This document shows positions 1,565 through 37,228 of a DNA stretch of 64,000 nt, one piece after another. The position numbers and the translations under genes are program-made. The stretch is from contig CDPCPM010000056.1 in the NCBI GenBank assembly GCA_976551045.1, positions 21,328,001-21,392,000 of the forward strand, in the 5' to 3' direction. Under the pieces are notes generated by a model. That model was given only the letters and a program-made list of their open reading frames with translations, had not been told where the DNA came from and did no database searches. The DNA comes from Glaucostegus cemiculus (lineage: Eukaryota). Positions within the stretch are counted from its first letter, which is position 1, and each line of letters opens with the position of its first letter.

Positions 1565-1689
1565 CTTGTCCAGGCAGGCTTCCACATGTCTACTCATCTC
1601 CTCCACAGATCCAGAAAGCGTCTCATTGCATAACGGACATACCTGGCCATCCTCTGAGGCCTTCTTCCTCTTGTTTTTCCCTATCCGTG
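1565..1689 (-). CDS. RNF220: RNF220 coding exon, long form 125 nt, (A)RIGKNKRKKASEDGQVCPLCNETLSGSVEEMSRHVEACLDK; short form 1643-1689 (47 nt)
   Basis: Acceptor ctttcttgtcttttag|CA completes G+CA=Ala from the previous exon. Donors are CAG|gtatgt (after 1643) and AAG|gtagtt (after 1565), both phase 0. Lies within ORF 1484..1750. Contains a basic cluster (KNKRKK) and a C-x2-C-x13-H-x3-C finger. Confidence 0.93.
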
Positions 1690-9628: not shown

Positions 9629-10185
9629 CAGGCCGTCCCAGGTAACGAATGGGTTCCATTTTCACTGACATTTTTTCCATAATTCAAAAAATGCATAAAA
9701 ACCTCTCTATATTATAACCAAACCTCCAATGTATTGTAATAAATGGCATCAAAAACACATAACAAAAACAATTATTAAAAAATGAAGAAAGGAAACTAAT
9801 TCTGGCGTTCATAGGTATGTATGCACGTCAGAACTTTGAATTTAATAATATCACAGGAGCTTGTTCCTATGTCCAGGTATCCATAAGTTGGATGTTCGTA
9901 ACTATCGGGCGGCACGATAGCATAGCGGTTAACGCGAAGCTGTTACAGCGCCAGCGATCGGGGTTCGATTCCTGTCGCTGTCTGTAAGGAGTTTGTACAT
10001 TCTCCCGTCTGCATGGGTTTCCTCCGGGTGCTCCGGTTTCCTCCCACATTCTAAAAGACGTATGGGTAGGTTAATTTGGGGGTTTAAAATGGGCGGTGTG
10101 GACTTGGAGGGCCGAAAGGGCCTGTTACCACGCTGTAAAAAGGTAAAAGTTAAAAAAAAGTAAAAGTAAACCCAGGGATAGCCTG
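9629..10185 (+). mobile_element. Tigger-like MITE, copy 2, interrupted by a V-SINE
   Basis: Starts CAGGCCGTCCCAGGTAAC and ends AACCCAGGGATAGCCTG. Collinear with 1890-2205. Confidence 0.75.
9907..10166 (+). mobile_element. Young tRNA-derived V-SINE
   Basis: tRNA-like head with B box GGTTCGATTCC, central V-domain gggtttcctccgggtgctccggtttcctcccaca, CR1-like tail gggccgaaagggcctgtt and A-rich end. Many CpGs are retained. Confidence 0.9.
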
Positions 10186-27730: not shown

Positions 27731-28652
27731 CAAAAAATGTGACCACAGCTATCGAGTTAGTCATCCCAGAGTAACAAAAGCATAGTTGAGGGTTTCTAGA
27801 ATGAGATGAGCCGAAACAGGAACAGTGACTGCATATCATAAAAAGTAGAAATGGGCAGTACAGATTTAAATCTGACTAACCAGCCACAAGGGACTCAACA
27901 ACATGTCAGATTTGATTTGAGCTGGATCAGTATACAAGAAATTTGATAAAATAGTAAGATTTAGTTTTGATCAGAATATGCCAGACCAGCCCGACTCAGT
28001 ACTCCATCCAGGCCAAATTGATTTGCTTAATGAGAAATCAACTTTCAGAAAGTTGAGAGTTTCAGGTGTATCTATTCTATATTTCATGCTCAAATGTTTC
28101 ATTGGGATTGATAATAGTACCGCGATGGTTGGATCAGGTCAGGCATGGAAGAAGTCCTAAATACTTGGACAGGAGTTGGATTTGGATTGGCCATGGTCAG
28201 GCCAGGTGAGATTTAAATTTTATACTTAAACAATGCTATCACATGAGACATCAATCTTGTCGTCAGTTTTATTTCTGTTTCAATCAGTTGCCAGGGAAGA
28301 TAAAGCCAGCAGAGTATGACGGGGAGACCAAATGTGAGATCGCTAAATTTAAGGATGAAATAACACCTAAAAGGATTGATTTTGAAAATAAACACGGTTC
28401 CCTCCAATTCCCTGTTCCCTCCATTCAAAATAAAAGGCAAAAAGTTACTCAACATAAAGTGTGCTTACTATACATCTCAAATGGAATATTCAAGACCATG
28501 GAAAACACAGAAAAGTTATAGCTTGATGGCATATGATTAGATTTTTTCACCAGAGCACATGGCTTTAATTAAAACACCTCTCCCCCCTTCCAAAAGTGCA
28601 GTTTCCCCCCCCAAATCAGTATTTAAAAAGTTGCATTACAACATAACCTTAC

Positions 28653-28695
28653 CATTCAGCCTTGCTTGCCTGTTGGACCTTACTCGCAAAAATGT
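28653..28695 (-). CDS. RNF220: RNF220 coding exon, 43 nt, TFLRVRSNRQARLN+G
   Basis: Long polypyrimidine tract ending tttttctttag| and donor ATG|gtaagg. Phase 0 in, phase 1 out. Matches recalled TFLRVRANRQTRLN. Confidence 0.95.
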
Positions 28696-28848
28696 CTAAA
28701 GAAAAACAGAAAAGAAAGGTGAAAAATAAACAGGAAGCACTTAAACTGTCAGATGCTATCTGAATATAAGTGAAATATATGCCTGAAGCAGATGGATTGC
28801 AGTGGATTCTCTCATTGCCCAACTGCACAGGATGTAAACAAAACCTAC

Positions 28849-28941
28849 TTCCTCCTTGCCATTGGTGTGTTCTGGATCCTCCATTCCTGCTGGGTCCATG
28901 GCAGGATTAAAATGGGATAACCTGTCAATATTACTTGGCAT
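28849..28941 (-). CDS. Candidate alternative first coding exon of a short RNF220 isoform, (MPSNIDRLSHFNPA)MDPAGMEDPEHTNGKEE
   Basis: Optimal Kozak GCCATGG with the ATG at 28899-28897. Phase-0 donor GAA|gtaggt after 28849. A 153-nt intron leads to the phase-0 acceptor at 28695. Lies just downstream (minus strand) of a CpG/motif cluster. Confidence 0.65.
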
Positions 28942-29054
28942 GAATGTAGCACCTGGAAGCTTTACACCTTTATAATCCGATCCGTGCAGTTCACAGAAAC
29001 AGAGAGGATGTCATTAGATTCAAACCAAGAGGCTACATCTTGCTCAGCTTACAC

Positions 29055-29155
29055 CAGGCCTCGGAGAATGCCGGGTCACGTGACCGCTAGCGAAAGGTGA
29101 AAGTGCAAAGCACAAAGCGCACATGCGCCGACCGGCCGATAGGTGGCAGCAAATT
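29055..29155. promoter_or_regulatory. Intronic CpG cluster / candidate internal promoter
   Basis: 10 CpGs in 29062-29138 against a CpG-poor background. Perfect palindrome GGTCACGTGACC (29074-29085; USF/TFE/CLEAR-type E-box), NRF1-like GCACATGCGC (29119-29128) and CTCF-like CCGATAGGTGGCAG (29136-29149). Confidence 0.65.
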
Positions 29156-30414
29156 AGCATCCAAGAGCAGTGCCTGAATTTGACCCTGTCAGTCCTGCAG
29201 CCTGCACTGTTGCTGCTCCTTGGAGAACGTCATGCATTTGTTAATTACATCTTTAAATATTTTTTATGCATTCAAGGAAGAAAATAAACTTTTTTTTAAT
29301 CAATATTGGAAACAATAGGAAAAATTGCCTCAACTTTTTTTTAGTGTCTTGAACTGATAACTCCACATTGAATTCATATTGCTTGTTGGAATTGTGAAAG
29401 AACAGCTAAATTTTATCATTAAATGAAAAGTAACTTTACATCCTACACAACAATAGTTTTAAACAGAGGAAAAACACAAACAGCTTTTCTATCTTTTACA
29501 TCCAAACTAATATTACACCAAGTAAATTACAAGATTCAATTGATAAACTTTATATAATTTTGCACTGCAAAAAAATCTAAACCACTAAGAAACCAGCATA
29601 TATTACATTGTAAAATATATTGTGTTGAGGCAATACTAGCATAATGTTGAACAACTATTTAGCATGACCTGAAGAATACCATGTTATCATCAATGACCGT
29701 ATGGTATTCCAAGAGGGGGAATGGCAGTTACTTTAATATATCTAGTATATTCTTATTCTTCTCCTTTCTTGTTTTGATTCTGAACCACTTTTAAATGTTT
29801 GCAAATATTGTTCTATTTATTCTGCAAGCTCATCCATAAAATCACACATTTAGCAGTAATGTTCCCATGATAGTAGACTCAAGTGTCAATCTCTTTTGAT
29901 TTTTTCTTCAAACATTGGCAAACCACCTACTGAGGTGTTGGGGTGTCCTACATACACAGAGTTATTATTTTCCCTGATGGTGAACAATTAGCTAGTATTT
30001 CAACATACAGAGCCTTGAAGTAAATTATGGAAGAAAGTAAAAATAATGAGTTTTTTTTTCAGATCAAAATTCTGTTAAGCGAATTCATGATAACAGCCTG
30101 AAAAAAATTGTTAAAAGGGGAAAAAAACCCACAAAAATAAGATTGCAGATAACTGATGAGGTTGTTATGGAGATAACGGTTCCTCATAGAGAAGAAGATT
30201 CTCAGGCACTGTATTCCCTCTGCAGGTGAGAGGTTAATGATAGCACAACACAGTAAAACACACATTTTCATCAACAACAGGAGAGCATCAATTATCCAAA
30301 CTATTTATAATTAGAAGTGGTGAGGATCCAATAATTCACTTACTGGGATACTCAAACACTAATTAGGCCATATACACAAGGTTTTTTTGTTCACTCATCA
30401 TGTTAGGGACATAA

Positions 30415-33714: not shown

Positions 33715-34230
33715 TCCCAAGTTGTCGATGTTAAGATCAAGTTAATTCTTAGAATACACCTCAAACCAACACAGGATGATTAATGGAATAGACTGAATGA
33801 TAGACATGGGTTGGCTGATAATCACACAGTAAGTAGAATCAGATCCAGTGTACTATAACAGTTCTTGTTGAGGCAGCCTTGGTGTCATCTGATTTTTATT
33901 CAGCTAATTTTGTCACAGAGTTCAGCAATTTAAGGCTTCAGGCACCTTTGCTCTTGGAGACACTTCTCTGATTTGAGTACAATCTCCAGTTCTTCGAAGT
34001 AAAACTAGTGACATGATGGCCTAGAAATTCAATTGTCCATTAAAGTATGCATTAGAATGCTGCTGTATGGGGGAATTGGGGCTTGTTCAATTAGTGTGTA
34101 ATTTTCAATTGTGCACCTAACACAAGGACTTGTGTGCAAAGAGGCACCAATCACAAGGTTTTGCACATTGGTGTACATGAATGGTGAATAAGTCTGGGAG
34201 TCCTGTGCACCAGCAAAAGCTACCCTGCAC

Positions 34231-34586
34231 TAGCTTATGTCATATAAGATGGGCGGTAACAGTCTTTTCCCTAGGGTACGGGAGTCCAAAACTAGGGGGC
34301 ATAGGTTTAGGGTGAGAGGGGAAAAATTTAAAAAAGGACCTGAGGGGCAACTTTTTTCACGCAGAGGGTGGTGAACATATGGAACAAGCTGTGAAAGGAA
34401 GTGGCTGAGGCACATACAATAGTATCATTTAAGAAGCACTTGGGAAGGTACACGCAGGGGAGGGGCTTAGAGGGATATGGGCTGAATGCAGGAAATTGGG
34501 ACTAGCTGGGTGGGCACTGTAGTCAGCATGGACTCGTTGGGCTGAAGGGCCTGTATCTGTGTTGTATTGGTCTGTGACTCTCTATA
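34231..34586 (+). mobile_element. Young CR1 3' end
   Basis: SLFPRVRESKTRGHRFRVRGEKFKKGPEGQLFSRRGW, then gggctgaagggcctgt and a tgactctctat tail. Flanked by CCTGCAC on both sides. Confidence 0.9.
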
Positions 34587-34949
34587 CCTGCACCCCTTGA
34601 GCGCTGAATCTAACCACTGCTGAAATTTGTTGTGCAGCTCAGAACTGCAGAGAGGAAAGACCACACGGGCACCTCCTTTACTTGGTGAGTGGTCCTGCAC
34701 GCTCGGATCTCTCGTAAATACTAAGGAACAAAGGAAGCAAAGGAGGTGGGAAGGGAGAATACCAAATGTCAAGTCCTGAGGAGCAGGTGCCAGACAAAGA
34801 TTTGTGGCCTCATGTGCGTTCAAATGTAAACTGCAACCAATCCCATCTACCAACATCCACATACTTACTGCCCCAGTGCTCTCATTCACATTTCCTATGT
34901 TGCACACACTTCTCACTATTCAATGATAGCATACGTATAGCACCCGCAG

Positions 34950-35335
34950 GGCAAAAAAGTGGCTCAGCTAGTAGAGCTGCTGCCTCACAGCTTCAGTGAC
35001 CCAGGATCAATCCTGACCTTAGACACAGTCTGTATGGAGTTTGCATGTTTTCCCTGTTATTGTGTGGGCTTCCTCCCTGTGCTCTGGTTTCTTCTTACAT
35101 CTCCCAAATTTGTGTGGGTCAGTAGGTTAATTGGCATTGCCCCTAGTGTATAGATGACTGGTAGAATCTGGTTGGGGGGGGGGGGTGGTCGTGGGGGAAG
35201 AGTTGATAGGAATGCGAGAAGAATAAAATTGGTTGGGGTAGGATTAATGTAAAAATGAGTGCTTGATGGTCAACACAAACATGGGAGGGGTGGAAACACA
35301 GGGCCTGTTTTCATGCTGCATCTCGCTGTGACTTG
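34950..35335 (+). mobile_element. V-SINE
   Basis: tggctcagctagtagagctgctgcctcacagc…GGATCAATCC…gtgctctggtttcttcttacat…gggcctgttttcatgctg. Confidence 0.85.
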
Positions 35336-35639
35336 ATGATATTCACTAACACTCTGAAGCTCTTTCTCAGAGAAGAATGTGATCACTACCGCAGGCTCTA
35401 CTAGCAACTGAAGCCATTTGGAGGAGTGGGTGCTGCCAGTACTTGGCTTGGTGACCACAAAGATGGTGTCCAGTGAAGGATTAGCATTCACTGAGGATGA
35501 TGGTGAACTCATTTCCATTCCTCCTTCTTACATCACCCCTCCCACTCACCCTGCACTCTCTTTTGTCTTAGAAGAATCAAGTGGTTCGAGCACATGTCCT
35601 GTTCCATGTCCCCTTCTCTAACCATGACCACATCGTTGT

Positions 35640-37132: not shown

Positions 37133-37228
37133 CTGGTATCTGTCTGAGTGATGAGTGTCATCTGCAGAGAGAGGTGATGCTGTTGGCGATTCCCCTTCCC
37201 TTTTAATTGGTGCTGATAGCAAAACAGA
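37133..37228 (-). CDS. RNF220: RNF220 coding exon, 96 nt, SVLLSAPIKREGESPTASPLSADDTHHSDRYQ
   Basis: Acceptor ctttcctctttctgcag| and donor CAG|gtggga. Phase 0/0. Lies within ORF 37061..37282. Motifs IKREGESPTASP and HHSDRYQ are characteristic of RNF220. Confidence 0.95.

Follow-up and report, generated by a model that had tools for sequence, protein, structure and literature searches.

A probable internal first exon of RNF220a in Glaucostegus cemiculus, spliced onto the common exons in related fishes

Results

The RNF220 locus

The RNF220 gene lies on the minus strand of the window (the whole 64-kb stretch of Glaucostegus cemiculus DNA analysed here). Its long-form exons occupy positions 55228-55184, 47096-47019 and 37228-37133; the rest of the exons, as far as the RING, fall outside the window on its left. 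The exon at 1689-1565 matches cartilaginous-fish RNF220a or RNF220 proteins plus one unnamed record (15 matches among 39 candidates). Since the best matches are named RNF220a and one locus has the full exon set, the gene is, judging from sequence, the RNF220 orthologue and not a paralogue. The features that concern the short form are as follows.

37133..37228, minus strand: upstream long-form exon, with a phase-0 donor that competes for the acceptor at 28695
28849..29079, minus strand: alternative first exon of RNF220a, about 231 nt; 5' end approximate (29064-29087)
28849..28941, minus strand: coding part of the first exon, 31 codons, with 7 acidic and 2 basic residues
28696..28848, minus strand: GT-AG intron of 153 nt; the joint 28695/28849 skips 153 nt and ends CT..AC on the plus strand
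28653..28695, minus strand: 43-nt exon (TFLRVR...) common to the short and long forms, placed from the genome and RNA joints
1565..1689, minus strand: exon following the TFLRVR exon, with the basic patch and then an optional 78-nt extension; donors at 1643 and 1565

The sequence cues on which the exon had been proposed are all found where the initial annotation put them. An open frame of 31 codons runs from the ATG at 28941 to 28849 on the minus strand; the ATG at 28899, described as an optimal Kozak start, sits in CCTGCCATGG and opens a 17-codon leader; the phase-0 donor reads GAA/GTAGGT at 28849/28848; and the 153-nt intron ends with the acceptor TTTAG/ACA at 28695, where the next exon begins in phase 0. 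These coincident cues are not unique, however, as other pairings of the kind occur in the same intron (see below).

The predicted order of an acidic leader, a basic patch, an optional finger and the RING agrees with that of annotated relatives of 325 aa. The finger, a C-x2-C...H-x3-C motif, is encoded by the 78-nt extension, which makes the exon 125 nt rather than 47 nt long and is included in all ten leader-bearing models. It scored above the Pfam cut-off for no family, the best weak matches being zf-C2H2_4 and zf-BED; it may resemble the ubiquitin-binding UBZ fingers. The exon lengths counted from 28941 total 978 nt (325 codons and a stop) if one downstream exon measures 97 nt, and a GC donor stands where such an exon would end. 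All downstream exons of the Pristis pectinata model P0022, which matches PF15926 positions 76-248 and PF13923, were found in frame in the genome at 88-100% identity. The predicted product has no N-terminal half but has the RING and the C-terminal part of the RNF220 domain.

Several other features of the gene and its surroundings were recorded. The 78-nt exon at 47096-47019 (minus strand) is present in the ray long-form models P0008 and P0011, is absent from P0002 and P0013, and is likely to be optional. To the left of the window, an RNF220 intron (L005 9839-8222, minus strand) has the donor GCATCCTTT, with a GC start, and a branch-like TTCTTTAAC about 10 nt before the AG; by the U12 consensus it is presumably a minor-spliceosome intron. 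Inside the 153-nt intron, at 28815-28783 (minus strand), an ATG and 11 codons precede a GC, with 10 of the 11 residues as in the leader of Hypanus isoform X9 (P0025); no joint using this frame is listed in the runs examined. Interspersed repeat fragments at 34174-35357 gather thousands of divergent RNA reads on both strands. A divergent RNF220 paralogue lies on contig C382 at about 1,898,000-1,933,000 on the plus strand (L011-L014). Its long N-terminal exon is 36% identical, with one stop near the start of the match, its RING exons are 87-92% identical and its basic-patch and middle exons are poorly matched; by eye, no similar first exon is evident in its matching 0.8-kb intron.

Splicing of the leader exon in related fishes

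The RNA evidence comes from 8 of 23 public runs, representing five related organisms. None of the runs recorded as RNA was listed as containing the stretch itself, and the raw RNA runs were taken by the species label of organism A. Split reads from 28849 to 28695 had been predicted, and the joint is indeed present in 7 of the 8 runs and four of the five organisms, both in raw reads and in contigs. Raw RNA-Seq reads of organism A cross it 15 times from 11 starts in X21, 8 times from 6 starts in X22 and twice in X23; contigs carry it in X1, X6, X10 and X12, four runs whose RNA nature is guessed and whose contigs span organisms A, C, D and F. In all 25 raw reads the first mate lies on the plus strand, which fits RNA from the minus strand in most stranded libraries. 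Organism A has two listed differences within the exon. Only X5 (organism B) is without the joint, containing a single unspliced piece at 28608-28761. In the relatives' RNA the leader exon is spliced onward, through the TFLRVR exon, to the exon at 1689: loose ends at 28653 in X21, X22, X1 and X6 carry the start of that exon.

The acceptor at 28695 is common to the short joint and, in the relatives, to the long-form joint 37133>28695. The latter was found in X12 only, where its depth is 6.6 as against 20.6 for the short joint, a comparison that leans on contig depth, a poor measure of abundance. The long joint is not listed for X10, X5 or X23, and X21 and X22 have no loose end at 28695.

Three stacked start codons

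The leader can be entered at three in-frame ATGs. Those at 28941 and 28899 had been recognized at the outset and stand; the third, at 28884 and likewise in a strong context, had been overlooked.

28939..28941, minus strand: ATG1, weak context (T at -3, C at +4); public 325-aa models start here
28897..28899, minus strand: ATG2, strong context; predicted product 311 aa
28882..28884, minus strand: ATG3, strong context; aligns with the bony-vertebrate short-form start; predicted product 306 aa
28991..29038, minus strand: two short upstream frames in the 5' leader, a start-stop at 29038 and 7 codons at 29014

Both upstream frames, which the initial annotation did not mention, are out of frame and terminate before ATG1. 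Methionine occupies the ATG1 and ATG2 positions in all ten leader-bearing shark and ray records. At the ATG3 position six of the ten have Met and four have Val, with GTG in organisms C, D and F, and we read this as loss of ATG3 in stingrays.

We somewhat favour ATG2 as the main start, hold ATG1 to be a possible one and consider ATG3 improbable in that role. A competing reading, in which the same exon yields mainly the 325-aa protein from ATG1 and selection acts on the additional 14 residues as an elasmobranch extension, we entertain tentatively. Consistent with it, ATG1 and its 14-codon spacing from ATG2 are kept, with neither indels nor stops, in ten of ten leader-bearing records, and the sole listed change between the two codons is synonymous. 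However, ATG1 has a weak context, and the records were chosen for starting there. The shark and ray proteins are computed gene models, in which the most upstream ATG is conventionally taken as the start. Conservation also extends beyond ATG1 (Mustelus P0021 has the window's PGATF), so that slow change could suffice. Substitutions affect 1 of 42 sites between ATG1 and ATG2 and 14 of 138 sites upstream (Fisher p 0.20), as counted from partial difference tables (8 of 10 differences for X6, 7 of 11 for X10 and 9 of 11 for X12). In these comparisons substitution density separated neither coding from untranslated sequence (p 0.20 and 0.23) nor one start codon from another.

Conservation of the leader and its mammalian counterpart

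The leader is present in 10 of the 14 members of a cluster formed at 90%, the ten coming from ten named sharks and rays. ATG1, ATG2 and the donor position are kept in every one of these ten records. The window's leader is identical to that of P0022 at 30 of 31 residues. Across seven aligned public RNF220a models of 325 aa, 25-30 of the 31 leader residues are identical, and the junction, finger and RING are the same, with no difference of substance. Examples are:

XP_051867781.1: Pristis pectinata
XP_078417122.1: Cetorhinus/Carcharodon record
XP_059840122.1: Hypanus/Hemitrygon record

A second stingray copy, the 'RNF220-like' protein of Hypanus sabinus (P0019, XP_059829990.1), has the same 31-residue leader, together with dispersed changes and two residues missing from the RING. 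It has the look of a retrocopy processed from the short mRNA; if it is one, expression in the germ line would be implied. No such copy was found in the Glaucostegus cemiculus genome.

Gar, bowfin, sturgeon, teleosts, frogs, squamates and mammals all have short forms in which a private leader meets the common part at the same junction residue, the leaders of gar, bowfin, teleost, frog, squamate and mammal forms measuring 8-22 residues. The bony-vertebrate start aligns with ATG3. In an ungapped test of the last 12 leader residues, chosen after the alignment had been viewed, 6 of 12 are identical to gar, zebrafish, eel and milkfish. Among 66,329 null 12-mers, from a pool that contained the leader itself, 1 scored as high. 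As many as 27-31 null 12-mers score as high as the frog leaders and 83-171 as high as the mammalian ones, where the match is weak (3 of 12 identical, 83 of 66,329 null as high). For sturgeon the figure is 8,431 of 66,329, and by this ungapped test similarity is absent. Zebrafish Rnf220a (NP_001070038.1, 307 aa) and gar have a 12-residue leader that aligns from ATG3 (6 of 12 identical), lack the 19-residue upstream extension and keep Met at the position called M38 in mammals. Lamprey Rnf220-like proteins (P0212, P0357, P0361) are annotated as short forms only, of 310-348 aa, in 8 of 9 cluster members, the ninth being a 137-aa fragment, and some have an acidic leader. That of P0212, a protein with a long branch and unusual make-up, was not counted as a homologue.

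A short form of this kind is already known. The deltaN-RNF220 protein is described as human isoform 4, of 308 aa, which starts in exon 5a, is the main form outside the brain in mouse and is needed for myoblast differentiation; a second start at M38 yields product 4b, whose nuclear signal is partly disrupted and which binds WDR5 less strongly (PMC12296455). As far as that account goes, the resemblance is close: an internal alternative first exon joins a private leader to the TFLRVR exon, the N-terminal half is gone and the RING is kept. The splice variant of 224 versus 146 bp given there (PMC12296455) corresponds to the 78-nt extension, 125 versus 47 nt in the ray. The two differ in that the ray leader has 31, 17 or 12 residues, versus 18 in deltaN-RNF220 as described, is acidic (7 acidic, 2 basic) where the mammalian one is basic (2 acidic, 6 basic), and has three stacked ATGs, unlike the first exon described in PMC12296455. 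The novelty implied by the initial annotation accordingly falls away, the isoform being published in mammals and annotated in public shark and ray models; our literature search found no study of it in cartilaginous fishes.

The 308-aa records of mammals agree with what PMC12296455 states for isoform 4, their residue 38 being a Met that falls within the basic patch. From this, and from the equal 78-nt variant, we infer that the ray exon is the counterpart of human exon 5a. The shark and ray first exon could instead have arisen independently of exon 5a, through convergent internal promoters, as the opposite charge of the ray and mammalian leaders and their 3/12 identity might suggest. We find this quite unlikely in view of the gradation of leaders that runs from sharks by way of gar and teleosts to frogs and mammals, the same junction residue and the G-[KR]-x-E ending common to most leaders.

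The start of product 4b is missing from the ray. The M38 codon is AAC (Asn) in the window, so 4b cannot arise from that start. Among 201 proteins, the position is Met in 143, Asn in 46 and Leu in 3, all catfish records, with 9 lacking the motif. The Asn records comprise 42 named cartilaginous-fish records and 4 unnamed ones; all 42 named cartilaginous-fish records with the motif have Asn, many of them being isoforms of one gene and so not independent. The divergent homologue P0222 also has Asn; in the tree it branches outside the jawed vertebrates with moderate support (92/88, the fork being drawn as open). The invertebrate homologues compared have no Met at this position. Asn is likely to be the ancestral residue, with Met apparently gained in bony vertebrates.

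The 5' end and the likely promoter

Transcript initiation had been predicted at about 28950-29100 on the minus strand. With the RNA 5' end read from where coverage stops, the relatives' coverage ends within 29064-29087, in line with the prediction: contigs end at 29079 in X1 and X10, 29087 in X6 and 29064 in X12, and raw-read depth in X21 and X22 stops at about 29079. The contigs themselves start at the 5' end of the exon, position 1 of the X10 record falling at 29079, and in X1 and X6 the match stopping within one letter of the contig's own end. Two features coincide with this end.

29062..29137: CpG cluster, likely promoter (activity presumed), straddling the RNA 5' end
29074..29085: perfect 12-bp palindromic E-box, at the RNA 5' end and inside the CpG cluster

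The cluster lies 121-196 nt upstream of ATG1, very close to the 120-200 bp first reported. The 200 nt at 28971-29170 hold 12 CpG (GC 52%, observed/expected 0.89), the window mean being 1.3 per 200 nt, and form the second densest CpG window of the 64 kb. The densest, 9901-10100 with 16 CpG, resembles a short interspersed repeat by its appearance. The 10-bp core of the E-box occurs once in the window, and we take the palindrome to be a candidate site of the USF/TFE type.

In X23 alone, minus-strand depth of 3.1 extends over 29142-29437, upstream of the supposed start; it may come from RNA that starts further up, from an extended exon or from nascent transcripts. This signal, and a 5' end read from coverage, would suit a transcript that begins further upstream, with the leader exon as an internal cassette in it or as the last stretch of a longer unspliced 5' region. 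Such an arrangement is highly improbable, as four contigs from four organisms end within 29064-29087 and the X21 and X22 depth stops there, the runs examined for the leader exon list neither an upstream joint nor a loose end for it, and stops in frame upstream of ATG1 within the exon mean that it cannot be an internal coding cassette.

The sequence cues by themselves would count for little. Under a loose donor rule, the 8.4-kb intron contains six ATG-donor pairings in which the frame stays open from a strong-context ATG to a phase-0 GT donor, two of which belong to the RNF220 leader exon; it is the RNA and the conservation that raise the exon above chance. That the ATG and donor are a chance coincidence with no transcript, as the four other pairings might invite one to think, is already contradicted by spliced reads and contigs in four organisms and by a leader conserved in ten named species, and we give it practically no credence.

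Discussion

Taken together, the results make us highly confident that this RNF220a exon, spliced to the TFLRVR exon in relatives, is the likely first exon of a second, internal promoter and the source of a predicted ligase of 306-325 residues that lacks the N-terminal half and has the basic patch, an optional finger and the RING. In the mechanism we propose, transcription would begin in the CpG cluster near 29080-29100, and ribosomes would scan past the two short upstream frames. A start codon in weak context is generally bypassed in favour of a stronger one downstream. By such leaky scanning some ribosomes would start at the weak ATG1 (325 aa), most at the strong ATG2 (311 aa) and few at ATG3 (306 aa). 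The basic patch would be intact in all three products, from which 4a-like behaviour is predicted: they should be nuclear, like 4a, and none should resemble the 271-residue 4b. If the exon is orthologous to human exon 5a, it would predate the split between cartilaginous and bony fishes.

It has been suggested that the short form is the original RNF220 (PMC12296455). Over its first 215 residues the ray long form has matches, by pairwise E-values on predicted proteins, in amphioxus (1e-44), Lingula (3e-20), a damselfly (6e-15) and a bumblebee (2e-7), the N-terminal region being matched by 8 of 21 homologues compared. The presence of the N-terminal half in amphioxus, a brachiopod and insects argues against that suggestion. 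One reading, which we consider reasonably probable, is that the internal promoter and leader exon date back to the first jawed vertebrates or earlier; that bony vertebrates gained M38 and with it the partly cytoplasmic 4b; that sharks and rays never had M38 and stacked up to three leader AUGs, of which stingrays dropped the ancestral one; and that the short form is a derived truncation, the long form being no late addition.

The finding opens no new mechanism and confirms a known isoform in another lineage. Its value is a modest evolutionary one, in that the exon-5a form would be dated to the jawed-vertebrate ancestor and the 4b product confined to bony vertebrates, though not to all of them, three catfish records having Leu. 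This is relevant when exon-2 knockouts and the R363Q/R365Q disease alleles, which PMC12296455 discusses, are interpreted across species.
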